Assembly: GCA_963827165.1 (NCBI GenBank)
Contig: CAWGZR010000014.1
Location: 1-41,246, forward strand
Direction of reading: 5' to 3'
Length of the DNA: 41,246 bases
DNA from: Candidatus Bathyarchaeota archaeon
GTDB taxonomy: Archaea; Thermoproteota; Bathyarchaeia; Bathyarchaeales; Bathycorpusculaceae
Shown: positions 2,305 to 29,002 of the stretch, piece by piece
Layout of the letters: each line of letters opens with the position of its first letter
Position numbering within the stretch: the first letter of the stretch is position 1
Notes under the pieces: generated by a model
Database searches by the model: none
What the model saw: only the letters and a program-made list of their open reading frames with translations
What the model was told of the DNA's origin: nothing
Program-made: the position numbers and the translations under genes

Positions 2305-3322
2305 TCACTCAGATTTCCTCGCGGTCTTTTTCCTTGTTTCTCCGCCACACTTTTCAGTCCGTTTCCCTGCGGTCTTTTCCCTTCCCGGCTGGCTGCGCTT
2401 CCGCCGGGAGACCAATAGATTAACCCCTTCCAGTTGTTCCCGCAGACTCGGTCCTCCGGTTATCCCGAAGTCCAGGGAGACATTCTGGGAAGGGAACGTA
2501 ATCCCATGGGCTTTAAAGCTTTGATCGATCGCCTTAATGGCCTCGCTTCTCGCTTTTAAGAAGACCGTTTGCTCCGTCGCGGTCCAGAACTGAATCCTAA
2601 AAACGATGGTGGTGTCCTTAACCTCCTCATAAAAAAATTCCACCTGCTTGTCGGGGTCCCGCAACGGCGGGTCCAAAGCTTTCACCGCCTCCAGAGCCAG
2701 GTCTTCAGCCTGCTGGAGATCCGGTGTGTAAGCGATGCCGATGTATAAATCTATCCGGCGGTCTCCGCTAATATAGTAATTGACTATCGTTTTAGCCAAT
2801 AGGTCCTTGTTGGGAACGGTAAATCTCTCACCCAGCCTGCCGCGTAATATCGTGGCGCGCGCATTTATAGAATCAACGTAGCCCAAAACCTCGCCGCTCT
2901 TGATCCGATCACCGAGATGAAAGGGATGCTCGAAATGCAAGACTATGCCGCGATAAAATCGGCGAAGAGGTCCTTGCCGGCGAAGCCGAGAGCTATGCCC
3001 AGGATGCCGACGCCGGCCAGCATGGAAGCCACGGCCCGATCCAGGTTGAGGACATCGAGGGCCAGGATAATGCCGATAGTGATGATGGCCAGGCGGGTCA
3101 TGGTGGCCGTGAGCCTGGCCATGTGTTTATATCCGGAGAATCGTATGATGGCCCGAGCCACTAATTTAGCAGCGGACGGCTCAATCTGATAATGATGGCC
3201 AGGACAATAAAGGCCACCACCATGTTGGGCAACATCTTGATGTCCACGGTAAGCCAGCTTTGAAGCTTATTAATAAGTTGAGCCAGGGCCTTTTCCAAGC
3301 TTAAACCAGCTTCCATATCCAT
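2305..3322 (-). pseudogene. mscS: small-conductance mechanosensitive channel (MscS family), frameshifted
   Basis: Fragments 3161-3379, 2943-3161 and 2305-2940 give TM helices, LAGVGILGIALGFAGKD and HPFHLGDRI...G.V..I..RAT......VPNK. Confidence 0.8.
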
Positions 3323-3588: not shown

Positions 3589-4806
3589 ATGCCGGTAAAA
3601 CCGAAGCCCGGGAAGCTCCCCGACTCGAGGGAGGGCACCACCGCAATCCTGAGGCTCGATCGCTGAGCTTATAGGCCGGAGTGGTTTTTAGGCGACCTTA
3701 CCGCCACCCTGGTCATCTTTGCCACCACCATTCCGGCGGCGCTGGCGTACGGCCAACTGGCCGGTCTGCATCCTATTAACGGCCTTTATGCCTCGCTGCT
3801 GGCCTTAGCAATTTACGCCTTTTTCGGCACTTTTGGGCAGCTCATCATCAACCCTGGGGCCGCGGTCGATTCTGGTCGCCACTTCGGTGGCCTCGGTCTA
3901 TTCGGGCGGAGACCCGGTCCGCTTTGCCACCCTGGCCGCGTTGCAAGCCGTCATGATCGGGGTCATGCAGGTTTGTGCCGGGTGGGCCGGCTCGGATTCG
4001 TTTCCGTCTATCCCCAAATCTGTGGTCAACGGCTTTATCAACGGCATTGCGCTGATCATCATCCTGGCCCAGGCCGGCCGGTTTTCCGGGATTGAGCTAA
4101 AGAACGGGCCTTTTTCCGTGCATCCTCGAACTGGTCGCCAGGGCCCACGAAGCCCATCAGCTTACTCTATATGTGGGAGTAGCCTGCCTTCTGGGAATGC
4201 TCGTAATGCGCCCCATGCTGCGCTGGGTCCCGGAGGCCGTAGTTGTGGTGGTCTTGGCCACGCGGGCCGTGCTCCGGTGGGACCTGGGAGCCAGGGAGTC
4301 CAATTGATCGGGTTGGTTCCGGCGGGTTTGCCGCATCCGATGATTCCCCATGTGGGGTTTGGCGATATTCTGACCATGCTGCCCGTGGCCTGGGGGTAGC
4401 CCTGGTTTCCTATGTGGATACCACCATCACGGGGCGGGCCTTTGCCCTGCCAGGCAGATACCGCCTGGACCCCAATCAAGAGTTGATCGCCCTGGGCCTG
4501 GCCAACGTGGGCACCGGTTTCTTCCAGGGTTTGGCAAGCGACCACCACACCGCACCGCCATTAATGATATGTACGGCGGCCGCAGCCAGTTTGCCGGGCT
4601 CCTGGCGGCGATTCTTCTGGCGGTGTTTTTACTCTACTTCACCGGTATTCTCAAATATGTGCCGGCGGTAGCCCTGTTGGCCATCATCATCGTGGCCGGC
4701 ATCAGACTGTTGCGCCCGCTCGAACTCCTGAAGATATTTCGCACCCGGCGGGCTTCGGCCTATATCAGCCTGGTAACCACCGCCGCGGTGCTGATCGCCG
4801 GTCTGA
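3589..4806 (+). pseudogene. SulP/SLC26 family anion transporter, frameshifted and 3'-truncated (no STAS domain)
   Basis: IPAALAYGQLAGL.PINGLYA read at ~3730-3795, then IPKSVVNGFINGIALIII, IGLVPAGLP, LDPNQELIALGLANVG, GGRSQFAGL. The gene ends abruptly at the composition change near 4806. Confidence 0.8.
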
Positions 4807-8529: not shown

Positions 8530-8652
8530 TAAACAGGCACTCGAGCGAAACTACTAAGGCATCCGAAAACAGAGCGGACTAGAGGTTTTTTGGGTTTTTT
8601 CGCAAAAGTTTTAAGTCCAGCAACGCACAATGCTTCTGAGAGGTTGTTATGT

Positions 8653-12931: not shown

Positions 12932-13729
12932 TTAGAACCATGAGAGGGTTCCGTTCTTCCTAGCCGTTTTGAGACACCATGCGTAAATCACGAAGCCAAC
13001 AGGAACAATGATTGCACACATTAAGCCTAAAATAAGCAGTTTAGGCAGAATCATTGGGATTGTCCAGCCTAGAAGCATGTCCCTGATGCAGGTGAAGAAG
13101 TAATATGGTGGCGTTACGTAGGCGATTACTTGAAGCAGCGGCGGCAGAACTGATGGTGGAAAAAGAACGTTGCCGAAGAGGCTGGTGGCGATAGTTATCA
13201 ACGCAGTAATTGGGTCGCCCTGTTTGGTCAATATCAGTATTCCTGACCCGATCATGCTGAAACCGATGAATGTGCCGATGCCTAACGCAAGAACTATGAG
13301 CGCTCCAACAATGTTGATGCTCAAAACTATGCCGAACGCGTAGACGCCCAGGAGAAGGTAAATTGCGACGACCGCGGTGCTCCAGATGAAGCCCCAAATG
13401 GAGCTGCCAATGATAAATGTGCTTAACCCTGTAGGCGAAACCAAGACTTCTTCAAGAGCCCATGGATTGATGGTTTTCTGAACAAGTGTTAGGGCTTGCC
13501 CTAGATAAGTGTTGAATGCTAATCCGATGATCAGGTATGTGGTATAATTTGTGGCATATTGGCTCGTAACAGCCTCATTGAATGAGCTCTGACCTACAAA
13601 AGCAAAGGAAAGCGCGCCGAAAACTGCTGTTAAAAGCAGAACGAATATGTTTGTTTTATATGTGGAGAAGCTGACTATGTCGCGCTTCATAAAGTACCAG
13701 ATTTTTTCAAGCTCAGTCCACACAGTCAT
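12932..13729 (-). CDS. ABC-2 type exporter permease
   Basis: About six TM helices, LEEVLVSP, G..FP..VLP.LLQ.I...P.YY. Confidence 0.88.
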   Translation of the reverse strand: MTVWTELEKIWYFMKRDIVSFSTYKTNIFVLLLTAVFGALSFAFVGQSSFNEAVTSQYATNYTTYLIIGLAFNTYLGQALTLVQKTINPWALEEVLVSPTGLSTFIIGSSIWGFIWSTAVVAIYLLLGVYAFGIVLSINIVGALIVLALGIGTFIGFSMIGSGILILTKQGDPITALITIATSLFGNVLFPPSVLPPLLQVIAYVTPPYYFFTCIRDMLLGWTIPMILPKLLILGLMCAIIVPVGFVIYAWCLKTARKNGTLSWF

Positions 13730-15814: not shown

Positions 15815-17065
15815 CTATCGTATCTGGACTTTTATTTCTGTCGAACTGAAAATGTTCTTCTCAATAGTCCTCTTCAAGCTGCTGATTTTGTCAACCGCTT
15901 CTTTGTAGGCGTTTTGCTTTACTGCCTCATGCGCCTCAATACTAGTCTTCCGCGTTTTAAGCTGGTCAAGCTGCTGCTGGCACACTGCAAGGTTACGTCT
16001 TGTTTCTTCCATCATTGGAGAAGCCAACAACTGATCTCTTGACTTTGCCAAATCAAAGGATCGATTTTGAATCTGAGAAAGCGAATTGTTCGTTAATATT
16101 TCGTTTATTGACTGCTCGGCTTTTCGCCCTTTTTCTTCTTTTAGCTTCAGCTTGTCCTCAGTCAAAAAACGTTGAAGTTTCTCCAAAATCTCCCTAAACT
16201 CTGGGTAGCCATCTTTCTCCGTCACCAACGCGTCAAAAGGGTTCTCTAAGTACAAATTTATTCTGCTCAACTCGTCAGGAGTTACTCCGCCACCTCCTCC
16301 GCTGGTTGCTAAGGCTTGCATTTTTATGAATGGTTTCTGCAGGTGTCTGAGAGTATTTCTCAACTCATTCGTCAAAACGCATATTTCATTGTTAACTGTG
16401 TTTAACTCGTTGATGGGCCCCTTGGTTTTGAATTCATCAATTTTCATCTCTAAATCGGCGATTTCTTTCTCGACTGGCAAACGCTCGCTCGTGATTTGGT
16501 CTTTTTCTTCACCTAATGTTCCCCGCTGCGTTTGGATATTTTGCAGTTCATTGAGCAGATTGAAGGCTTCCTCTAAGGTTTTAGTTTTAACGTACTCTTT
16601 TGTGATGAAGTCGTTGAGGAATGTGTGGGTTTGTTTTGCTTTTTCGTATACGGTTAGGAATCTCCTTCGGTCCATTATGAAGAAGGGGGAGATTCTAGGG
16701 AACCAATTTTTGATATCTATGTCGGTTACAATGAAGATTTTTTGGATTTCCTGGGCATACCTGTTTAATGCGTCGTAGGAGATTTGCTCAGGAGGCTCAA
16801 GTTTCTTGAGACGATCGACAAACAAATGTGAAAGTTTGTTTAGAGCTCGGGCTCTATTGTAGACTTTCATGTTTCTTTTTTCAATTTCCTTCGTGCTGTT
16901 GTCCAGAAGCATCTTATTCATATCATCGATGCCCTGCATTGCCAGTTTCATGTCATCTCTTAATTTCTTGGCTTGGGCATGCACGGGCGAAAGGATTGAA
17001 TTTGTTTTGTCTTCAAGCCAAGGTTTAACTTCGCTTGGCGACGTAAATTGAACTGTTTCGGTCAA
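15815..17065 (-). CDS. hypothetical long coiled-coil protein
   Basis: 416-aa ORF rich in K/E/L/Q with heptad character; 8 nt upstream of the phosphatase. Confidence 0.8.
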   Translation of the reverse strand: MTETVQFTSPSEVKPWLEDKTNSILSPVHAQAKKLRDDMKLAMQGIDDMNKMLLDNSTKEIEKRNMKVYNRARALNKLSHLFVDRLKKLEPPEQISYDALNRYAQEIQKIFIVTDIDIKNWFPRISPFFIMDRRRFLTVYEKAKQTHTFLNDFITKEYVKTKTLEEAFNLLNELQNIQTQRGTLGEEKDQITSERLPVEKEIADLEMKIDEFKTKGPINELNTVNNEICVLTNELRNTLRHLQKPFIKMQALATSGGGGGVTPDELSRINLYLENPFDALVTEKDGYPEFREILEKLQRFLTEDKLKLKEEKGRKAEQSINEILTNNSLSQIQNRSFDLAKSRDQLLASPMMEETRRNLAVCQQQLDQLKTRKTSIEAHEAVKQNAYKEAVDKISSLKRTIEKNIFSSTEIKVQIR

Positions 17066-18837: not shown

Positions 18838-19368
18838 TTAACCTCTAAGCCTATGAGAAGCAGACGCTATCCTGTCTTTGCAGAAGTAAATTACAGTCGG
18901 AGTAAATATTGAAAGCGAGGCCAAAAGATAATTCAAGGGAAAAACCGATGGGTACTCGAAGAGGTTGCCGCCCCATGAACCCGCGATGTCTAATAAGCCG
19001 CCTGAAAGCTGGATAAGCGACCAAACCGTAACAGCCAGCAAAGCCCCGCTGAGTCGAGCAAGATATTTTTCCCGTCCCACAAGAATTTTAGATTTAGCAT
19101 TTTGAAAAAAGACCTCACCTGCAACAGCCCCTGCGGCACCCGGGAAAAACGCATTCACCAAAATTTTCTCAACCAAGTTCGCGGGAACATACATGCCGAC
19201 CCATGGAGTTGCAGCCCAACTCAACACGGGTAAGACAACGCTACCAGTTGCAATGCGGATTGTAGCGGGAATAGCGTAGATTGCTGCGCCGCATATTCCC
19301 CAAACCCAAAACCTCCTGCTTCTTAGCATTTTTTTGAAGGCTTCGAAATACATAGGCTTAACATACAT
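18838..19368 (-). CDS. hypothetical membrane protein
   Basis: 176-aa ORF with about four hydrophobic segments; co-oriented with and just upstream of mch. Confidence 0.7.
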   Translation of the reverse strand: MYVKPMYFEAFKKMLRSRRFWVWGICGAAIYAIPATIRIATGSVVLPVLSWAATPWVGMYVPANLVEKILVNAFFPGAAGAVAGEVFFQNAKSKILVGREKYLARLSGALLAVTVWSLIQLSGGLLDIAGSWGGNLFEYPSVFPLNYLLASLSIFTPTVIYFCKDRIASASHRLRG

Positions 19369-19470
19369 GGGAGGTTTAAAAAAACCTTCCCAAAACTACC
19401 TCTGCAACTCCTTTCGAACTAGTCAAACATTAACCCTAAACTAACCGCGGCAAACCGCTTGGGGTAAAAA

Positions 19471-19569
19471 GGGAGATTTTAAGAGATTTTGAGAGATTTA
19501 TAGAGATTTTTAGACTCAACCTGCAGCCAATCCAAGCCCTAAACCAAAAAAGCAACCAAAAACACAAAC
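19471..19569 (+). repeat. dispersed element copy 1: four 10-bp NNGAGATTTW units plus 57-bp conserved core
   Basis: gggagatttt aagagatttt gagagattta tagagatttt, then core at 19513-19569. Confidence 0.85.
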
Positions 19570-19705
19570 AAAAAATCCCGACATTCCGCAACACTCAAAA
19601 GCCTCTCACCCTTCCAAAAAAAACCAAAGCTAGCCTCCAAGCGAACATGCCATTAACTCTTTTTTTGATAAAGCCATCGCAACATAAACGATTAAGAAAG
19701 CTGGC

Positions 19706-20662
19706 TTATGGTCTGTAGCCACTGAGGGTGATTAGGGCTAAGGCCGCCGCGGTTAGGTCCGCTGTGGTTCCGGGGTTGCATTTGTTCTGGGTTGAACGCA
19801 ACGTTTGGTCGAAGCGTTTGAGGTTTGCTCTACCGCGAGCGTTTTCTAAACCGCCTAACTCCAAAATGGCTTTTGCCTCGGCAGACACTTCTACAGCTTT
19901 TTGCTGGCCCATTTTTCGTGCGATAAACGTGTCGGGGTGCTCAAAGAGGATTTTAAGGAAAGTGTGAACCACAGCGGTGTTCAAAGGCTTATTTTCAAGC
20001 TGTTCAGCCAGGTATGGGTAGGCTAAATCGAAGGTTACCGGGTAATTGCTAATCCATTCAGCACAGATGTCGTCGTATTGCGCTGCCAAACGAAAAACCT
20101 CAAACAGAGTAACATTTTCTTTCAACAGACGCTCCTTTGACTGGGGGTCTGTGACGTCGAGATCCGGCGCCTTATTTAAGCCGCTTGGATTAGCGATATC
20201 TACCGCCTCGTAAAGGCGCACAGAGTCCCACGCCGTGGTTGCCTTGACCACCAAGTCAATGTTTCGACGCAAAAGAGAAAAATCCATCTCGAAACTTTCG
20301 CCCGCAGGTGTCATTCCTGCCGCAACAGCGATGGGCATAAACAACATTATGGTGCCAAGAATCGTGTTTCCGCCCCTCTGCCAACTGTTAACGTCGCACA
20401 CACAGGACTTTATGAGTTGACCTAACTCAACCTCGCCAACACCAAGTTTGCCTTCAGCCACCAGCGACCCGCGATAAGCGGCCTCTTGAAAACTTGGTCC
20501 CGCAGCGACTGCTGAAGCCAAGAAATGCTGACAAGTTGTCCCCTCAAAGCTCGCGGTTAAGTTGACGTTTCCGGGTTTTTCCGAACTGACTTCAAGCAGA
20601 ATCGCCAACTCCAAGCATTCCGAAATATGTTGAGCTTTTGCACAGTCCTTCATTGGTCGCAT
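19706..20662 (-). CDS. citG: CitG-family triphosphoribosyl-transferase (archaeal/methanopterin-associated type)
   Basis: LEVS..KPGNV, GNT.LG, PDTFIARK.G, NPGTTADL.AA. Confidence 0.88.
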   Translation of the reverse strand: MRPMKDCAKAQHISECLELAILLEVSSEKPGNVNLTASFEGTTCQHFLASAVAAGPSFQEAAYRGSLVAEGKLGVGEVELGQLIKSCVCDVNSWQRGGNTILGTIMLFMPIAVAAGMTPAGESFEMDFSLLRRNIDLVVKATTAWDSVRLYEAVDIANPSGLNKAPDLDVTDPQSKERLLKENVTLFEVFRLAAQYDDICAEWISNYPVTFDLAYPYLAEQLENKPLNTAVVHTFLKILFEHPDTFIARKMGQQKAVEVSAEAKAILELGGLENARGRANLKRFDQTLRSTQNKCNPGTTADLTAAALALITLSGYRP

Positions 20663-20715
20663 CGACTTAACTGGCGCAAAGAAGGTTTATTAAACTTATT
20701 AGAAGACTACAACAA

Positions 20716-21741
20716 GTGGTTCGTTTGAAGGTACGTGAAGGCGACTTAATCAAGACCAAGAGCAACGTGGTTTTTGACGTCAAGGGCTTAACTCACCCCG
20801 ACGGCAAAATTATTGCCTTTCCACGTTTCATCCCGTTGCCACAAGGTACGAGACAAGGGAAAGATGCGGCTTACGACAAAGTCTACAATCTTGGCGACCG
20901 ATTCAAGTACCTGCAGGAAAATCACCCTGACCTAATCATTTTTGACCCTGTGCTGGGCGAAACAATGTGTGAAGTGCCAGTTGACCAAGTGGCTGAACAC
21001 TACAAGCCTGAAGAAAAACTCTGGGCGTTAAGGTCGGCTAAAGACCTCACAATATTGGAGAGCAAGGCTTTGCATTTGGCTGAAGCTCTAAAGACGGAAT
21101 CAGGTATTCCCTGGAGCAGCGTAGGAATTTCTGGGTCGATAATGGCAGGGTTGACTACCGAGAAGTCGGATATTGACCCGCTTGTGTACGGGGTGGAAAA
21201 CTGCAGAAAAGCCTACGCCGCCCTCCAAAGACTGCTAAAACTTGATTGCGGATTCAAGCCTTACACACCAGCCGAGCTGCAGGAGCTGTTCGATTTCCGT
21301 TCGAAGGATACCCAAATGAGCTTCGAAGACTTCGTTCTGGTCGAAAGCCGAAAAGCGTTCCAAGGCAAATTCATGGGCACAGATTACTTCATACGCTTCG
21401 TGAAAGATTGGCGCGAAATCACCGAGCAATACGGGGACGTGCACTACAAAAACAGCGGTTACGCGAAAATAACAGCTAGAATTGCTGATAGTGCCGACTC
21501 GCTTTTCACACCCTGCACCTACAAACTTGAAAACGTCAATGTTGTTGAAGGACCCAAATTGACGCCAATAGCAGAGATTGTTTCGTTCCGCGGCAGATTC
21601 TGTGAACAAGCAGAAAACGGCGAAGCAGTTGAGGCTCAGGGAAAAGTTGAATTGGTCACAGACAACAAGTCAGGCAACGAACATTACCGCCTAATCCTTG
21701 GGAACAAGCCGTCGGACTACATGATTCTTCCCAAGTGCTAA
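20716..21741 (+). CDS. archaeal Pol-beta-type nucleotidyltransferase paralog 1 (COG1665-like)
   Basis: REGD.I.T.....F.V.G..HP at the N-terminus, GISGS......SDIDPLVYG, C-terminal F.EQA..GE.V...G..E.V. Confidence 0.8.
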   Translation: MVRLKVREGDLIKTKSNVVFDVKGLTHPDGKIIAFPRFIPLPQGTRQGKDAAYDKVYNLGDRFKYLQENHPDLIIFDPVLGETMCEVPVDQVAEHYKPEEKLWALRSAKDLTILESKALHLAEALKTESGIPWSSVGISGSIMAGLTTEKSDIDPLVYGVENCRKAYAALQRLLKLDCGFKPYTPAELQELFDFRSKDTQMSFEDFVLVESRKAFQGKFMGTDYFIRFVKDWREITEQYGDVHYKNSGYAKITARIADSADSLFTPCTYKLENVNVVEGPKLTPIAEIVSFRGRFCEQAENGEAVEAQGKVELVTDNKSGNEHYRLILGNKPSDYMILPKC

Positions 21742-22814
21742 TGCTGCACTTTGAGGACTTGTTCGTAGTAGCGTGGGCAATAGGTCAGCGTTATCTGGTG
21801 GAATTGTTCAGTTGGCGACATGACTTCTTCAAGATTTCCTTCAACAATTACAACTTCGTCCCGTTGTGCTTGCTGCCGAAATTCCTCCATGAATGAGAAA
21901 ACCCTCGCGACTTCGAGACCTTCCTTGGGACCGCTTATAAGTTCCAGAGGTTCGACACCGTAGATTGATGGAATAAAGGGTGCTTCATCGTCAGTTGTTA
22001 TGCGTGCCTTGAGTTTAACCCATCCCCTTCGGGTTATACATGTCCGAGGAGCATACTCTGATTTTATTTCACTCCAAGCCTTCACGGGTTCAAACTCAGC
22101 CTTGATGGTTCGCCCGCTGGCTTTGTCATCGTATAACCCGTAAATCTGTTTTCTGCGTTGATGCCAAACAAAGTCGTCAACCGAGAAGTTTTTGAAACGC
22201 CAATCCTTGCCAGCCATCGCCGCGTCAGACTCGAACTCGTTGTGAAAACCAGATTGCCCGTCGTCATACAGGGCATGAAGGGTTTTTCGCATAACAGCGT
22301 TTTCTTTTTTGCCGTAAACTATCAAGTCAATGTCTGAGTATTTGGGGTGGTGAAATCCATGCAGCATGGAGCCGAAGACACCGAAATCCCCCGTTTTTAA
22401 CCCTGAGCAATTAATCGATGTCATGAGAACCCTTTCCATAGCCGCCAGCAACTCATCCGTTGGTCCCGCCTCAAGCAGCTGTTGCAGCCGCACCTCGGGT
22501 TTTCTTGCCTCTGCGACATCGCTGTTTTTCACACCAACAAGATTCAAACCAAGCATCTCATGGAAGACTTGGTATTTAGGGAAATTCTTAGCGACAAGTT
22601 TCATGCCTTCGTCGTTATAGAATTTAAAGTAAAGCTGTCCTCTGCCTGTCCTTGGCGCTCGGGGATCTTTAGAGTCGAAGATTTTTGCTGAAGCATACTC
22701 TGCATCGCAGATGTAAGCGCCTGGTGGATGTGAATAGCCGAAAACGCGGAAGATCAAGCCCTCAGCGGTTTCGATACCGTCGCGGTCACGGAGACCTACG
22801 GTGTTACTGGCCAA
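21738..22814 (-). CDS. archaeal Pol-beta-type nucleotidyltransferase paralog 2 (COG1665-like)
   Basis: [27 protein letters not shown].....[16 protein letters not shown]...VEG.LE.V. Confidence 0.8.
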
Positions 22815-23827
22815 ATATATTCTTCCTCCGAAGTAGCTGTTCCAACAACCACCTGATAATAAACTTCGCTTGATGAGGTGGATTCAACACGTTCAAGCCT
22901 GCCAGAAACCCGAATTGTGTTCCCGCATTTTGCAACGTTTCGATACAGCCCAATATTGGAAACAACCTGAGTGGGAATCTTGTCCAATTCAAGTTCAGAC
23001 TGATCATCTAAGGGTTTGTAGCCTGAAATTCTGTATGTCGCGGGTCGATACATGGTTTCTGTGTCGTCGCTTACTATCGCTTCGAATCTAACCAGGTCAA
23101 GTGGAACGTAGCGGTAAGCGCCATATTTCTCCGTGATTTGTTCGGGTTTTTTGGTGGCGTTGTACATGAATATCTTTCCTTGGTATCTGCCTTGGAATTT
23201 TCTTGCCGCTTCAATGCGGTTGCCGACAATGTAGGTGAGTTTTCCAGCGTTAACAAGCTGCGCTATGGCTTGCTCGACCTGGCGGAAGTTTTGGGTGCCA
23301 TAAACGACAAAGTCAATATCAGATTCGGGAGCATGCATCTGCAATGCTATGGAACCGTGAACGCCCAGGTCGCACAAATCGACGCAAGATTCCTTGGAGA
23401 TTAATGTGATGAGGTCAAGCGCCATCTGCTGAAGTTTGTCGCGTTTAGGAAGGTTCGTCAGCCAAACCAGTCGGTCTTTAGGAACAAAAACCTGCTCAAT
23501 GCGGTCGAACGGCGCCGTGATTAGTTCCTTGTTTCGGAAAGGGCAGAAGTAGAGGTAGTCTGGAAAGTTCTTGCGGAATGCCTCTATGAAGGTTTGGTAG
23601 TTCTTTGCGGTGTAGAGTTTTTCTGCTCTGAAAAGCTGGTTGTCGCCGAACTTCCATGTGCGCTCTAACATTTCAACTTTGAAGAGTTCCCGGTACTGGG
23701 CTGGGATGTACTTTAAGAACGCGAATACGCGGTCATCGGGATGCTCATAGCCAAATGTGTTGAGGATGAAACCGTCTTTGGTGACAAAAGTGTCTCCATC
23801 CATCGGAACCCAAATATCATCAGACAT
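22796..23827 (-). CDS. archaeal Pol-beta-type nucleotidyltransferase paralog 3 (COG1665-like)
   Basis: DGDTF.T.DGFI...FGYEHP, GVHGS.......[22 protein letters not shown]. Confidence 0.8.
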
Positions 23828-24037
23828 AACTTACCAGCGAAATAGAGTTAAAAGCTATAACTAAAAAAGCTATTGATAACGATCGGAGAGGAAACAGATC
23901 CGTGATCTTTTTTGAACCAAGAATGATTACGTTCGCCCCGAAGAAGACAAACCCGCAAACTATAATCAGCCAATCTTTTTGAGCTTCTTTTCCTCACGAC
24001 ATTTTGACTTCACGCTAAATTACAGTGGTAGCCGCCT

Positions 24038-24197
24038 GTTGACTTTTGTTGACGTTAGTGGACTTTCGTTGACTTCTATAGACTTTAGTAGACTCTTGTT
24101 GACTATAGTTGACTTTTGTTGACTTTAGTAGACTATAGTTGACGCAACCTGCAGATGATTTAAGCTTTTCCGCAAAAAAGCAACCCAAAACACAAAC
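24038..24197 (+). repeat. dispersed element copy 2: ten 10-bp units (GAC every 10 nt) plus 57-bp conserved core
   Basis: GAC recurs exactly every 10 nt from 24041 to 24141 (for example gacttttgtt, gactttagta, gactatagtt). Core at 24141-24197. Confidence 0.9.
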
Positions 24198-24375
24198 AAC
24201 AGTTTTCACGAAATCGCATCTTCGTCAAACCGAAAGATTCGAAATCAAAAAATAGACTAAACCAAGTCGAAAAACCCTAAAGAGACAATCCAAAAAAAAC
24301 TCTCAAAGCGAAAAACTTAAGTGTAGAGAGCTTGTTGTTTTGTTCTTAGAACCAAAATCATGGATGTTGAACCAA

Positions 24376-24942
24376 TTGGCTGTTGAAGGTTTTTTCGAAA
24401 ACAAAAAGACACCTGTAGAAGCTAAAGTCGGAGACTTAACCCCACAATCTAAAGCGGTTAACGTTACGGCCAAAGTTGTATCTAAAACTGAAATCAGAGA
24501 AATCCCAATGGGCAGAGACGGCTCTCCACATAAGGTGAGCGACGCGCTGGTCGGAGACGAAACAGGCGTAGTGTACTTGACACTCTGGGATGACAACATT
24601 GAAAAAATAAACGAGGGCGACAGCGTACGCGTGGAAAACGGATACGTAACACTTTTCAAAGGCAACATCCGCCTGAACATCGGAAAATACGGCAAACTTG
24701 AACCAGCAAAAGAACCCCTAGCAGTAGAAGTAAACACTGAAAACAACGTTTCAAGCAAAGCCTACGAACAAGAACGAAGACCATACAGAGGCGGCGGAGG
24801 AGGAAGAGGCGGTTACGGCGGCGGCGGAAGAGATAGAGGACACGGCGGATACGGTGGAGGCGGCGGAGGATACGGCGGAGGACGGGATAGAGGCGGAGAT
24901 CGTCGCGGCAGCGGTGGCGGCGGTTACAGACCGAGATACTAA
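24376..24942 (+). CDS. ssb: single OB-fold single-stranded DNA-binding protein with RGG-rich tail
   Basis: KV.DL......VNVTAKVV, VGDETG...LTLWD, V.LFKG...LNIGKYG, C-terminal GGRGGYGG repeats. Likely TTG start at 24376. Confidence 0.9.
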   Translation: MAVEGFFENKKTPVEAKVGDLTPQSKAVNVTAKVVSKTEIREIPMGRDGSPHKVSDALVGDETGVVYLTLWDDNIEKINEGDSVRVENGYVTLFKGNIRLNIGKYGKLEPAKEPLAVEVNTENNVSSKAYEQERRPYRGGGGGRGGYGGGGRDRGHGGYGGGGGGYGGGRDRGGDRRGSGGGGYRPRY

Positions 24943-25204
24943 TCGTCCAAAGTTTGAAAAACCAATCTAACTCTTTTTTGACTTTTTTATTCTTTTGTTT
25001 CGCCAAAAACTACATTGCACTTTTTCAAAATCTTACATTGGACTCTAAAAGATTGAAAACCACAAGAACAAAGTTGAGCACCGCGCACCTTTTCAAATGT
25101 CTTGGTAGTGCATGGTTGCTACTCAAGAAATATCGGCTTGGATTTAGGCAAAGTATATAATTATAACTCCACATCTCACCGTTTACTTCAGGTGCCTAAA
25201 CCTT

Positions 25205-26287
25205 ATGCAATTTCCCAAGCCGAAGTTTTCGTGGAAAATGGTGATTTTTCCACTGTTGGGGATCATTGGCTTTTTTGCGTACATTTATCTGTTTAAGGTC
25301 GACATCCTCGGGATTTTCGCCACGGCGGAAAAGGCGGACCCCCTTATTTATTCAGTGGCAATAGTGTTCGGGTTGTTTCAGGTTTTGTTTTTCACGATGT
25401 CCTGGCGGGTACTAACTAACCATCTTTGCATTAAGATGAGTTTGGTTAGAGCTTACCTTTACGTTTGGTATGGCATGTACGTTGACACCATTGTTCCAGC
25501 TCAATCAATAAGCGGAGAAGTAACCCGAACATATCTGCTCACAAGGGACGGATGTGGCTCATTTGGAAAAGTTGTAGCATCACTATATGCTCACAGGTTT
25601 TTGGGCACAACAATAAATGCGGTTGCATTAATCGCAGGGTTAGTTTTGCTGACGTTCGGAGGCAACGTTAACCCCCTCGTTTTTAACTCAATCATTGTGG
25701 TTGCGGCCGTAATAATAGGCATTCTTTTTTTGATGGCTATTTTGTCCTTGAAGCGAGAATGGACTTTGAAAGGGATTAACTGGGTGACAGATTTTGCCCA
25801 TAGAATCAGCAAAGGAAGAATAAAACTGGAGAAACTAAAAGCAGAAGGGATCGAGATTACAGCACACTTCCACGATTCAATGCAGGAGTTCCGTCATAAC
25901 CCAAAAGCCATTTCGTTCTCCCTGTCGTATCTTCTTATTTCCTGGTTTTTCAGCCTAAGCGTTCCATACCTTGTCTTCATGTCGCTAGATCACACAGTTT
26001 CAATAAGCATAATCATCGTCACTTCAGCAATATTCTTAGCAGTTAAGTCGATTCCGGTGGGGATACCTTTCGAAGTTGGTCTTCCCGAGGCAGTTATGAC
26101 CACCCTCTACATTTCAATGGGGATCCCAGGCGCGTTGGCTGCTACAGCAACAATACTTACCAGACTTATCACCCTGTGGCTATTCTTTATAATTGGCCTT
26201 GGAGCACAACAATGGCTCGAACTAAAACCCGCGTTAAAGTCCACACAACCAAACACAGAAAAAATTAAAATCGACCTACCGCCGTAA
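25205..26287 (+). CDS. UPF0104 / lysylphosphatidylglycerol synthase TM-like (flippase-like) protein
   Basis: W..L, P....SGEV.R, IP...G..E..M...Y...G, RL.T.W; multiple TM helices. Confidence 0.82.
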   Translation: MQFPKPKFSWKMVIFPLLGIIGFFAYIYLFKVDILGIFATAEKADPLIYSVAIVFGLFQVLFFTMSWRVLTNHLCIKMSLVRAYLYVWYGMYVDTIVPAQSISGEVTRTYLLTRDGCGSFGKVVASLYAHRFLGTTINAVALIAGLVLLTFGGNVNPLVFNSIIVVAAVIIGILFLMAILSLKREWTLKGINWVTDFAHRISKGRIKLEKLKAEGIEITAHFHDSMQEFRHNPKAISFSLSYLLISWFFSLSVPYLVFMSLDHTVSISIIIVTSAIFLAVKSIPVGIPFEVGLPEAVMTTLYISMGIPGALAATATILTRLITLWLFFIIGLGAQQWLELKPALKSTQPNTEKIKIDLPP

Positions 26288-26306
26288 TAATTCATAAGAC
26301 AATAAA

Positions 26307-26756
26307 ATGAACACCAAAATTGAAACAGCATCAATTCGGCTCCTGGACAAATTCTGCGAAATCGAACATCAATGCTTTGACAAAGAAGCCTTCACAAAAA
26401 GGCAATTAGCCTACCTGTTAACAGACTATAATTCTATAGCGTTAGTGGCCAAAGTCGACAGCGACATTGCAGGATTTATCATTTCACAGGTGGAAATCGA
26501 AAACAACACACTCTTCGGGCATATAATTACAATAAATGTTGCGCCAACTTGGCGGCGAAAGGGAATCGGCACCCAAATGCTAAAGGAAATAGAGAGGATT
26601 CTAAAGGAAAAAGGCGTAAATGAATGCCATCTGGAAGTCCGAGAAGACAACGCCCCAGCATTAAAACTTTACCTGAACAGTGGGTATCAGAAAATAGGCA
26701 TATTAGAAAAATACTACGGGACTAAGCATGGGTTATTTCTGAAAAAGAATCTTTAG
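26307..26756 (+). CDS. rimI: RimI-like GNAT N-acetyltransferase
   Basis: GHIITINV.P.WRRKGIG, LEVREDN..A..LY...GY.......YY. Confidence 0.88.
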   Translation: MNTKIETASIRLLDKFCEIEHQCFDKEAFTKRQLAYLLTDYNSIALVAKVDSDIAGFIISQVEIENNTLFGHIITINVAPTWRRKGIGTQMLKEIERILKEKGVNECHLEVREDNAPALKLYLNSGYQKIGILEKYYGTKHGLFLKKNL

Positions 26757-26841
26757 AAGCGCCGCATCCCACCAATTAAGCGTTTATTCGTCTTTGAGAT
26801 ATGGTTAAATATCTTGATGCGGTTTTAGAGGCGGTGGAGAG

Positions 26842-27111
26842 ATGGGAGAGCCTCGGGGAAGAAAATCGAACGAGCAAACGCTTGTCCGAACCATTGTAAG
26901 TTTAATTCGCAACAGCACTTGGCGCTGCGGCAAACTTGAAAAGTCTATCGTACAACACCTTCACAAACGAAACGAAAATTTTGGCAGAAACCAAGTTTCA
27001 GTTAAAGAAATAATGCTAAGCCTCAACATCACCGGCGAGAAAAAAGACGAGTGCTTGGATGCACTGCGTAGACTTGAAAAAAGAAACATCGTGAAAATAA
27101 CACCTCTATAA
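26842..27111 (+). CDS. small hypothetical protein, possibly winged-helix
   Basis: TATA-like TTAAATA and GGTGGAG upstream; C-terminal ALRRLEKRNIVKI resembles a wHTH recognition helix and wing. Confidence 0.6.
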   Translation: MGEPRGRKSNEQTLVRTIVSLIRNSTWRCGKLEKSIVQHLHKRNENFGRNQVSVKEIMLSLNITGEKKDECLDALRRLEKRNIVKITPL

Positions 27112-27226
27112 ACAACCACTTTCTATTTTTTGTTAAGTGCAGTTTCTTTTCTGTGTCATACAGGTTTGCTGTCGAGTTTTAGTGTGACTTTTTATTTAGT
27201 GTAAACTGCGTTTTCGGCAAATTTCA

Positions 27227-27330
27227 GTTTGTGTTTTGGGTTGCTTTTTTGATTCAGGGCTTGAATCGGTTGCAACTATTGTCCCAAAACATCTCAAAAC
27301 GTACCAAAACATACCAAAACGTATCAAAAA
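27227..27330 (-). repeat. dispersed element copy 3 (inverted): five 10-bp units plus 57-bp conserved core
   Basis: + strand gtcccaaaac atctcaaaac gtaccaaaac ataccaaaac gtatcaaaaa; reverse-complement core at 27227-27283. Confidence 0.85.
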
Positions 27331-27425
27331 GTTAAAAAAATACAAAATAAGACCGCTAATTTTGTGAGCAGCAGATCTGCCTTTTTTGGCAAGGCAAATT
27401 TTGTTGGAAAACTGAGTTTAAAGCG

Positions 27426-28823
27426 TTACTTGAGGAGTGTGCTTTCGTCTGGCGGCTGCTTGATTAAGCCATGCTTCATCAGCAACTCGGTTGATTGCCT
27501 AGCGTTTTGGATAATGGCTGTAGCGCGTTCAAACAGCTCTTGCTTAGATAGTTTAACCCTTGCAACGCCATCCTCGATCGATTTCAGGGCGCATGCAACG
27601 GCTTCCCTTGGGAAAACTTCCCACTCATCCATCCTCGGCAAAATGTCCGTTTCGCTTATTCCACGTTCTTCCGCGTATTTCGCAAGTTCCTGCGCGGCTG
27701 CAATGCACATGCCGTCCGTCACGCCTCTGGCCTTCACGTCCAACACGCCTCTGAAAATACCCGGGAATCCCAAACTGTTATTGACCTGATTGGGAAAGTC
27801 GCTTCTTCCAGTTGCCACAATTCTCGCGCCTGCTTCTGTTGCGTCCCAAGGCCAAATTTCAGGAATCGGGTTCGCGCAAGCGAAAATAATTGAGTTTTGA
27901 GCCATGGATCTAACCCATTCTTTCTTGATTGTGTCGGGCCCAGGTTTTGAGGCGGCTACTACCGCGTCAACGCCTTTGAATGCTTCCTCTATGCCGCCGA
28001 TTCTTCCTTCTGCGTTGGTTTTCTGAGTCACGTCATATTTCCAGGGATCTTCTTCTTTTCTTATGTCTGCTCGAGTTTTGTCTATGACGCCTTTGCTGTC
28101 GGCAAGTATTATGTTGCCGGGTTTGACTCCCCATTGCATGAGAACATAAGCCGTGCGGATGTTTGCTGCTCCCGAACCCACAAGTGCGATTAGGCTTTCC
28201 TGCGGTTTTTTGCCAACAATCTTAAAAGCGTTCATCAGCCCCGCCAAGATCACGGTGGCGGTTCCCTGCTGGTCGTCGTGCCACACGGGAATGCTGAGTT
28301 GTTCGCAAGCGCTTTCCAAGACGTGGAAGCACTTGGGTTTCTCAATGTCTTCAAGGTTTATGCCGCCAAAAGACGGCTCCAAAGCCTTGCAAATCTTAAC
28401 TATTTCGTCGGGTTCCTTGGTTCTTAAGCAGATTGGAAACGCATCAACCCCGCCCAGGTATTTGAATATGAGAGCTTTTCCTTCCATAACGGGCAGCGCT
28501 GCTTCAGGACCGATATCTCCGAGTCCCAAAACCCGGGTTCCGTCCGAAACCACTGCCACACTGTTCCATCGGTTGGTTAATTCGAATGATTTATCAGGGT
28601 CAGCTTGGATTTCCCTGCAAGGAGCAGCAACACCGGGGGTGTACCATACCGCGAAATCGTCGACGCTTCTAATTGCGCATTTGGGGATAACCTGCATTTT
28701 CCCCTCGTAGAACCTGTGCATCGGCGGGGACAGTTGCGCGGGTTTCTTGGCTTTCGCAAGCAACTCCTCCACGGTTGGTTTAGGCTTATCTGACGAAACC
28801 AAAACAACATTTCTCCTTTTCAA
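27426..28823 (-). CDS. NAD(P)-dependent malic enzyme
   Basis: YTPGVA, SDGTRVLGLGDIG, PVMEGK, INLEDI, HDDQQGT, ANP.PEI, ATGRSDFPNQVNN..GFPGIFRG. Confidence 0.95.
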   Translation of the reverse strand: MKRRNVVLVSSDKPKPTVEELLAKAKKPAQLSPPMHRFYEGKMQVIPKCAIRSVDDFAVWYTPGVAAPCREIQADPDKSFELTNRWNSVAVVSDGTRVLGLGDIGPEAALPVMEGKALIFKYLGGVDAFPICLRTKEPDEIVKICKALEPSFGGINLEDIEKPKCFHVLESACEQLSIPVWHDDQQGTATVILAGLMNAFKIVGKKPQESLIALVGSGAANIRTAYVLMQWGVKPGNIILADSKGVIDKTRADIRKEEDPWKYDVTQKTNAEGRIGGIEEAFKGVDAVVAASKPGPDTIKKEWVRSMAQNSIIFACANPIPEIWPWDATEAGARIVATGRSDFPNQVNNSLGFPGIFRGVLDVKARGVTDGMCIAAAQELAKYAEERGISETDILPRMDEWEVFPREAVACALKSIEDGVARVKLSKQELFERATAIIQNARQSTELLMKHGLIKQPPDESTLLK

Positions 28824-29002
28824 CCGCTAAATATGAAAGGATAGTTTTAAGCATTTCCGCAAACCGATTGACCGGTCTATTTTGACCAGACAGCCGCGTC
28901 CTGTCGTATTCGACTTTTGGTTTTAACAGCTTGAACAATGAGGCGATTTTGTTAGTAACCTTAATTTACCTTCGTCGCTAAACCTAAAAAAGGTAACGAC
29001 AA

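Follow-up and report, generated by a model that had tools for sequence, protein, structure and literature searches.

A dispersed intergenic element family in Bathyarchaeia joins a helically phased 10-bp array to a conserved core

The stretch of DNA analyzed here (the window) is 41,246 nucleotides of contig CAWGZR010000014.1 from a Candidatus Bathyarchaeota assembly (GCA_963827165.1), and its archaeal gene content includes methenyl-tetrahydromethanopterin (H4MPT) cyclohydrolase, a tRNA-intron endonuclease, PheRS alpha and beta, and ribosomal proteins S7 and S12. Three loci in this window, each an array of 10-bp units joined to a conserved core, are members of a large lineage-specific family of dispersed intergenic elements in the Bathyarchaeia, and this family is apparently previously undescribed. 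We tentatively propose, as the best available explanation though one we hold at somewhat less than an even chance, that the element may be a portable promoter-operator cassette whose boxes are read once per helical turn by proteins resembling PhS018 and MraZ.

The 25-nucleotide pattern CAAAAAAGCAACCMAAAACACAAAC has exactly three matches in the window, at 19545-19569(+), 24173-24197(+), and 27227-27251(-), and the sole difference among them is at its M position; the chance expectation is zero, with no match in 100 dinucleotide shuffles even when three mismatches were permitted. Pairwise alignment and a repeat search gave an ungapped alignment of the three loci that begins at the last array unit and runs through the 25-mer, and each array lies directly 5' of its own core on the strand of the element. 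A previous interpretation made from the letters of the window alone (the sequence-only reading) had described these three gapless copies, their single variable position, and the 10-bp arrays in front of them, and all of this was borne out, as was its placement of the copies in tandem, divergent, and convergent gene gaps: copy 1 lies in a tandem gap between 18838-19368(-) and CitG (19706-20662(-)), copy 2 in a divergent gap between 22796-23827(-) and an SSB-like gene (24340-24942(+)), and copy 3 in a convergent gap between 26842-27111(+) and the gene for malic enzyme (27426-28823(-)). The parts of the three copies are listed below, with arrays as delimited by Tandem Repeats Finder (TRF) at period 10 and core positions counted back from the start of a conserved 20-mer.

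19473..19512 (+): copy 1 array, about 4 units of 10 bp of the GAGATTTTNA type, in phase with the core (TRF 19473-19514, 4.2 copies)
19513..19549 (+): copy 1 core, positions -37 to -1, GACTCAACCTGCAGCCAATCCAAGCCCTAAACCAAAA (gapless alignment with copies 2 and 3; nhmmer E = 2e-13)
19550..19576 (+): copy 1 conserved 20-mer AAGCAACCAAAAACACAAAC with A-rich tail (pattern match; family conservation to about +28)
24018..24140 (+): copy 2 array, 10 to 12 units of the GTTGACNTTN type (TRF 24038-24143, 10.6 copies; a register family in the repeat search runs from 24018)
24141..24177 (+): copy 2 core, whose minus strand reads GCGGAAAAGCTTAAATC, a motif resembling a transcription factor B recognition element and TATA box (BRE/TATA) (17/18 identity of 24159-24176 to 28846-28863)
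24178..24206 (+): copy 2 conserved 20-mer AAGCAACCCAAAACACAAAC with tail (pattern match; nhmmer E = 9e-17)
27284..27349 (-): copy 3 array, 5 to 7 units of the GTTTTGGTAY type (TRF 27284-27329, 4.6 copies; seven in-phase units)
27247..27283 (-): copy 3 core, GACAATAGTTGCAACCGATTCAAGCCCTGAATCAAAA (alignment and inverted-repeat pairs; nhmmer E = 1e-14)
27219..27246 (-): copy 3 conserved 20-mer with tail (pattern match; nhmmer)

The two distal units of the copy 2 array are a GGTAGCCGCC variant common to other elements of the TTGAC type (loci L013, L034, L066, L071, and L087 of the scan described below), and for the copy 3 array TRF gives a 20-bp period as well. In arrays of the GTTTTGG type (27284-27329(-) in the window; 2190-2250 and 2590-2650 in L007), the unit is the reverse complement of CCAAAAC within the 20-mer, and this complementarity gives copy 3 the only markedly stable predicted fold (z = -2.14), which may be a coincidence. 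Nothing was recovered at the position of a decayed fourth copy that the sequence-only reading had suspected near 8584-8626(-), even when the core profile was run with filters off and E values up to 100; the best match of this profile beyond the three copies was at 13583-13605 (E = 1.7).

The family extends well beyond the window. A scan of 185,579 species-representative genomes with the query AAGCAACCNAAAACACAAAC returned 95 loci, of which 86 carry the core, while the remaining nine (L003, L008, L022, L023, L027, L045, L048, L078, and L091) are chance matches in unrelated bacteria with neither core nor array. The genome of the window is itself absent from this collection, and the best DNA match of the window there is L072, at 89%. 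By hand count the 86 core-bearing loci fall in 29 assemblies, 27 of them labeled Bathyarchaeia or Bathyarchaeota and two labeled bacterial. The typical elements in these bacterial bins (L040, L042, and L074; Limnocylindrales and Acidoferrum) suggest mis-binned contigs, and L042 is 74 to 100% identical in 50-nt windows to the Bathyarchaeota contig L041. The richest assemblies hold 14 and 11 copies with the exact 20-mer (hand count from the listing), and a profile of the core recovered a further 37 degenerate copies lacking the exact 20-mer within the 2.5-kb flanks, so the true copy numbers of these two assemblies must exceed the exact counts; copies per genome number in the dozens. The sequence-only reading had proposed a search for copies in relatives, and these 86 additional core-bearing loci favor its finding. 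The 20-mer was not found in the literature searched, and searches on tandem or intergenic repeats of Bathyarchaeota and on Bathyarchaeia together with AbrB turned up nothing relevant, as judged from listings.

For the anatomy of the element we used 87 copies anchored on the 20-mer, namely, 84 of the scan loci (L059 and L090, truncated by contig ends, were omitted) together with the three in the window. Identity at a lag of 10 reached at least 0.5 in the 60 nt adjoining the core in 71 of 86 elements, compared with 2 of 86 control windows and none of the 9 chance loci, and no other lag from 5 to 15 rose above background there. Whether an array always abuts the 5' side had been raised as a check on the original description; it does so in these 71 elements and not in all. 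The array period is exactly 10 bp, and its phase is locked to the core without gaps: about 80% of the 87 elements have a C at -35, -45, and -55, mostly within GAC (triplets -37 to -35, -47 to -45, and -57 to -55). The 54 arrays that have four or more units in phase provide 389 units for comparison with the majority of their own array; the triplet at -37 to -35 deviated in 7% of these units and the remaining seven positions in 20 to 28%, and this constraint was equal in solo arrays (7 to 9% in 40 arrays) and in arrays linked to a gene described below (0 to 6% in 14). The majority triplet was GAC in 20 arrays, GTC in 6, AAC in 5, and ACC in 4, with the rest rarer. Since the triplet is kept once per helical turn in fixed register with the core, the arrays are not free-running slippage products, and a constraint of this type would be expected of a protein contacting the major groove at every helical turn. 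The unit sequence does differ between copies, as had been remarked from the window alone, but it is not free to do so, because the phased triplet (mostly GAC) is retained.

The core itself is moderately conserved from -37 to -1 (GAC GCAACCTGCA AAC GATTCAAGCC CTAAACCAAAA), and across the 87 elements the conserved stretch peters out some 28 nt past the first base of the 20-mer (AACAAAATTT). In 55 of the 87, GCAACC is preceded by a run of five or more A residues, which on the opposite strand becomes a T-run upstream of the box. At orthologous loci the core is 86 to 96% identical, and the identity of the arrays falls to 36 to 88%. A CGCA shortly after the core, another feature picked out by the sequence-only reading, begins 17 to 18 nt past the 25-mer in all three window copies; in the family it is weak, with an occurrence within +6 to +26 in 15 of 87 elements, compared with 4 to 6 of 87 control windows.

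The strict 10-bp period, in which T-rich spacers and a triplet containing G/C alternate, also invites an architectural interpretation, in which phased T-tracts would bend the DNA, position archaeal histones, or load a nucleoid protein from the core, and in which the elements would mark domain or operon boundaries. The strictly intergenic placement of the elements, independent of gene orientation, fits this idea, as does their location at breaks in synteny, and arrays 40 to 120 bp long are on the scale of archaeal histone oligomers. However, what is kept is a specific triplet and not mere A/T versus G/C periodicity, and the word varies from array to array, which histones would not need; moreover, a specific family of DNA-binding genes is linked to the element. 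We therefore consider a purely architectural role rather improbable.

The linkage emerged when 380 open reading frames (ORFs) from the flanks were clustered: one family was common to ten loci, and no other occurred in more than four. A gene or pseudogene of this small-protein family is present at 17 of the 86 loci (16 by tblastn and L051 by eye), always on the array side and always pointing away from the element, and one further family gene was seen at L056, where it adjoins the array side of a second element. Six of the copies appear broken (L017, L020, L051, L052, L071, and L087). A tblastn match at L083 (E = 2.5e-4) was judged spurious, arising from an over-extended ORF that translates the element itself, and is outside the 17. 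No more than about 40 nt separate the start codon from the last array unit, and GGAGG-like motifs stand in front of the codon, indicating a leadered mRNA that must begin in or upstream of the array. No conserved partner gene was found beyond the small gene.

The linked proteins are 89 to 126 amino acids (aa) long and contain two half-motifs of the form NRIQIPK/GRIxIPK. A profile search of the PDB placed PhS018 of Pyrococcus horikoshii (2GLW) first (E = 4.7e-5), followed by MraZ (0.04) and AbrB (0.2). An AF2 model (pLDDT 84, pTM 0.71) gave the same order in Foldseek, with 2glw as the best match (E = 7e-5, TM 0.70) and the next being 9r4j and 9sz7, which are cryo-EM complexes of MraZ with promoter DNA. 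The fold and profile searches both place the family nearer to PhS018, with MraZ second, and the protein is a single-chain swapped-hairpin barrel of the AbrB/MraZ superfamily that is PhS018-like and is not MraZ. The family comprises at least 1049 clusters at 90% identity in a large protein collection, those that carry names come from Bathyarchaeia, and no Pfam model covers it. L036 and L054 are 86% identical across the core window, and the family proteins are 39 to 60% identical to that of L029.

Together, the 10-bp phase, the conserved triplet, and the linked gene of the AbrB/MraZ superfamily make a helically phased protein-loading site the best supported of the three interpretations offered by the sequence-only reading, the others being a mobile non-autonomous element and a noncoding RNA (ncRNA) family. 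The specific roles it had attached to such a site, namely, histone positioning, segregation, or chromosome organization, found no direct support, and no partition or replication genes are linked to the element.

The closest parallel is with MraZ. According to a study of MraZ at the bacterial dcw promoter (PMC12957436), this protein binds GTG(G/T) boxes separated by 6 spacer nucleotides, arranged as direct repeats with a 10-bp period at the promoter of its own gene; one subunit occupies each box in the major groove, the transcription start site lies inside the first box, and both the spacing and the number of boxes matter. The archaeal arrays share the 10-bp box geometry, with three or more direct repeats in each window copy and a lag-10 identity of at least 0.5 in 71 of 86 elements. 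The linked archaeal protein has the same swapped-hairpin fold, with two halves in one chain. In 17 of 86 loci the position of the array, just ahead of the linked gene, would be that of an operator at the putative regulator's own promoter; the window copies have no such gene. The differences are also clear. The archaeal protein is about 90 aa, compared with about 150 aa for MraZ, lacks the helical parts with which MraZ oligomerizes, and fails the Pfam MraZ cutoff. The archaeal arrays have 4 to 12 or more boxes rather than 3 to 4, their box word varies per array, and each adjoins a conserved core of about 65 bp, the combined unit being dispersed in dozens of copies and in clusters, most copies lacking the gene; nor is there a link to cell-division genes. 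PhS018, the best profile and structure match, belongs to the same length class at 92 aa, but its identity to the linked protein is only 23%.

Other systems built on short direct repeats are more distant. Plasmid iterons and type II centromeres (parC/ParR) consist of 10- to 11-bp direct repeats bound cooperatively by a small autoregulating protein that is encoded next to them, and ParR has a ribbon-helix-helix fold. The archaeal element differs in that no partition NTPase or replication initiator is found in the window flanks or in common among the loci, in that dozens of chromosomal copies exist, and in that the fold of the linked protein is unlike that of ParR. A CRISPR array, which has 24- to 48-bp repeats with unique spacers of similar size, was rejected, as the units here are 10 bp long, head to tail, and without spacers.

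In the promoter-operator proposal, the functional orientation would be that of the strand opposite to the one written in the sequence-only reading. Followed in this direction, the element would begin with a T-rich conserved block, GTTTGTGTTTTGGGTTGC, and a run of T5-7, which may serve as an upstream or insulating terminator. Next would come a BRE/TATA-like box (GGAAAAGCTTAAATC in copy 2), then a conserved spacer of about 18 bp (ATCTGCAGGTTGCGTC), and then a row of short boxes exactly one helical turn apart, beginning at about the transcription start. In a complete unit, the last box would be followed by the Shine-Dalgarno sequence and start codon of the barrel protein of about 90 aa. Barrel proteins might occupy one box after another on a single face of the DNA, in the manner of MraZ on its four GTG(G/T) boxes, and proteins bound in this way would control or block transcription from the core. 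The three copies in the window would be solo cassettes lacking the small gene. Copy 2, with its promoter signature intact, would be aimed at the operon beginning at 23827 on the minus strand, copy 1 at 18838-19368(-), and copy 3 into the 3' end of the malic-enzyme gene.

Copy 2 provides the most direct comparison with an ordinary promoter. On the opposite strand its core reads GTTTGTGTTTTGGGTTGCTTTTTTGCGGAAAAGCTTAAATCATCTGCAGGTTGCGTC, and the repeat search showed that, in this reverse orientation, 24159-24176 is identical at 17 of 18 positions to the BRE/TATA of the malic-enzyme gene at 28846-28863, 23 to 40 nt upstream of its start codon. The malic-enzyme site has the form GAAA-N-GCTTAAA, and other promoters in the window share the GAAA-N-GCTTAAAT look. 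If the spacing of the malic-enzyme gene applies, transcripts from copy 2 would begin near the first box, and this copy retains the look of a functional promoter. Across the family, a TATA-like box at this place is more common in gene-linked elements (8/17) than in solo elements (13/70). For copy 2, the promoter match weakens the argument of the sequence-only reading that the element is more than a promoter or terminator. As a separate observation, the 17 shared bases of 18 could mean a common origin of the lineage's ordinary promoters and the element core. Scans of 19300-27600 for bacterial sigma-70 promoters and hairpin terminators gave counts not above those in shuffled sequence, which is uninformative for an archaeon.

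A promoter could instead be sought on the strand as originally written. In that case GCAAAC and GATTYAAG would be BRE and TATA, transcripts would begin within the 20-mer, and the arrays, divergent from the small gene, would provide upstream activator sites. Within the variable core, conservation is highest at the AA of -16/-15 (89 to 90% of 87), which follows an A-rich CAAAC; a start about 26 nt downstream would be expected to hit a C-A step in the 20-mer; and in 41 of 77 cases the next gene on the 20-mer side is directed away from the element. However, this gene converges on the element in the other 36 of 77, often ending within about 100 nt of the 20-mer; the BRE-like GGAAA(A/T) is on the other strand, where in copy 2 it matches a real promoter; and the leadered small gene requires a promoter on that other strand. 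We regard transcription in the written direction as quite unlikely.

Several observations weigh against the promoter-operator cassette as well. A canonical TATA-like box is found at the proposed place in only 21 of the 87 elements and a TTGAAT-like one in 18, leaving 48 with neither, and copies 1 and 3 of the window carry only the degenerate GCTTGGAT and GCTTGAAT there. There is no preference in orientation with respect to flanking genes of at least 100 aa, since the genes on the array side divide into 42 pointing to the element and 34 away from it, and those on the 20-mer side into 41 away and 36 toward it, so many solo copies would fire into the 3' end of a neighbor. No gene of the linked family was detected in the window by tblastn at E values up to 10; matches at 24131-24196, 27225-27296, and 19542-19568 were rejected as gene remnants, having come from the over-extended ORF that translates the element. 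None of the family reaches a Pfam or NCBIfam cutoff (seven family proteins were searched against Pfam), with sub-threshold matches to MraZ (PF02381, E = 0.095) and AbrB (TIGR01439, E = 0.014 to 0.037). The strong conservation of the 20-mer is in part an artifact of the search pattern, and co-inheritance alone can explain the association between box word and protein clade.

The elements are always intergenic and can be clustered. They fall into 81 clusters (62 single, 14 double, 3 triple, and 2 of five), and all 19 multi-copy clusters have a uniform orientation, none being mixed. Copies within a cluster are spaced 150 to 250 bp apart with a core of about 65 bp, and the box word differs among the elements of one cluster; in L057 (1780-2530), the successive arrays are of the types GAGACGCA, TTTGCTT, GTGACGT, GACTTT, and CTCACA, and L007 is similar. 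L043 and L062, which belong to one genome, have in common a unit of about 190 bp (about -165 to +26) that is nearly identical between them, and the DNA beyond this unit is unrelated.

Comparison with related genomes gives a picture of the surrounding gene order. L072 retains CitG and its neighbor, but S7 directly adjoins the element gap there. This gap (400-930) contains two elements, one decayed and similar to copy 1 and the other intact and of the TTGAC type, both oriented opposite to copy 1 of the window. The short leader segment that at other loci precedes the small gene persists at the intact element, and the gene has been lost. Copies 1 and 3 of the window form 88-nt inverted arms that are 74% complementary; an inversion between them was considered as the cause of the orientation difference from L072 and rejected, since CitG would still face the 20-mer side. 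Three elements occupy the place of the window's CitG in L032 (2480-3330), and L057 and L058 have only the flank on the 20-mer side in common. We also observed that gene order between the window and related metagenome-assembled genomes (MAGs) changes exactly at elements, at L072 and L032 and likewise between L057 and L058, and that a small DUF433-like ORF, recognized by eye at 1990-2290 of L072, fills the gap between CitG and its neighbor, a gap of 54 bp in the window.

These patterns bear on the possibility that the element is a selfish non-autonomous repeat without host function, an archaeal counterpart of repetitive extragenic palindromic (REP) sequences, bacterial interspersed mosaic elements (BIMEs), or BOX elements, for which the small gene would be a passenger or former partner. 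REP/BIME and pneumococcal BOX sequences are intergenic multi-copy mosaics, BOX consisting of a conserved boxA and boxC with boxB units in varying number between them; they are palindromic or have two conserved ends, and they fold as RNA or DNA hairpins. The archaeal element resembles them in being multi-copy, strictly intergenic, clustered, and modular, with a variable tandem part and a conserved part; like them it may carry regulatory signals, and it differs in its single conserved end, the lack of a palindrome, the 10-bp unit with a conserved triplet, and the uniform orientation of clusters. A selfish repeat would account for the dozens of copies per genome (e.g., the 14 and 11 with exact 20-mers), to which the 37 degenerate copies in flanks are added; for the 19 same-orientation clusters of up to five; for the unit shared by L043 and L062; for the indifference to the orientation of neighboring genes; for the many linked genes that are pseudogenes (the six listed above); and for the synteny breaks of the window at elements in L072 and L032, together with the single shared flank of L057 and L058. 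It does not account for the better conservation of the core than of the linked protein (86% versus 39 to 60%), or for the triplet kept at every turn in solo arrays, which points to selection on the boxes and not to neutral slippage.

Hallmarks of mobility were also missing from the loci that we examined. No terminal inverted repeats (TIRs) of at least 18 nt surround the window copies, and the ends of the L043/L062 unit are not complementary; no target-site duplication (TSD) is visible at the ends of that unit, for the one junction pair examined; no transposase or integrase is common to the flanks among the 380 flanking ORFs; and no conserved second end was seen beyond the small gene in 9 loci. 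The mobile interpretation put forward in the sequence-only reading thus stands as regards dispersal, copy number, clustering, and the twice-found unit of about 190 bp, and has gained no TIRs, TSDs, or transposase. No features of a miniature inverted-repeat transposable element (MITE), such as inverted repeats, target duplication, or a transposase, were found at the loci examined. Overall, we think it unlikely that the element is only a selfish repeat.

An ncRNA family, with a variable repeat part and a constant scaffold, appears very improbable. The layout resembles that of guide-plus-scaffold RNAs, and a short T-run often follows the A-rich tail (TTT within +4 to +12 in 31 of 87 elements, compared with 22 of 87 controls). 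However, Rfam gave no match at the gathering score across the whole window and none at E values up to 1 in 19300-27600, fold z-scores for the three copies on both strands (0.26, 1.82, -0.85, 0.43, -2.14, and -1.48) show no common structure or consistent stability, and no conserved promoter was found outside the element. The core cannot form internal stems, because one of its strands is A+C-rich with almost no G and the other is G+T-rich, and the suggestion of an RNA family in the sequence-only reading is not upheld.

The promoter-operator cassette may also be part of something larger, although we consider this extension unlikely as a whole. Paralogous swapped-hairpin proteins might each read their own once-per-turn word, with the arrays carried on a shared portable promoter/terminator core, so that neighboring genes would be wired combinatorially to several paralogous regulators in a word-addressable DNA-binding system. 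Recombination between the repeats would, in addition, rearrange gene order. If true, this would mean that the core reached dozens of intergenic positions and was stacked in clusters of different words.

The Bathyarchaeia are abundant uncultured archaea of peat and sediment whose gene regulation is almost uncharted, and a recognizable cassette in dozens of copies per genome offers a concrete handle on it. Together, the cassette and the protein family predict binding sites, transcription starts, and a regulator family, all of which are testable. If the analogy with MraZ holds, an array of boxes read by one subunit per turn would be an old and expandable mode of DNA reading in the AbrB superfamily, and it would supply a function for the PhS018-type barrel. 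In addition, the elements mark differences in gene order between related genomes, which matters for assembling and comparing these MAGs.

Other features of the window deserve brief mention. Three adjacent paralogues of 341 to 358 aa lie between copies 1 and 2, at 20716-21741(+), 21738-22814(-), and 22796-23827(-), and have weak signatures of nucleotidyltransferases (NTP_transf_2/Pol-beta); the two on the minus strand are those toward which the promoter-like core of copy 2 points. The window contains no tRNA or transfer-messenger RNA (tmRNA). An ORF of 416 aa at 15815-17065(-) has no family assignment and shows a sub-threshold match to reverse transcriptase (RVT_1, E = 0.006). The first 5,000 positions have a G+C content of 0.54 to 0.62, compared with 0.41 to 0.50 in the remainder, and their ORFs are fragmentary, including the beta and C-terminal part of an MscS protein at 2305-2940(-), from which the channel N terminus is absent, and an 85-residue piece of a sulfate permease at 3833-4399(+); this high-G+C segment could be a chimeric join, foreign DNA, or a set of decayed genes.

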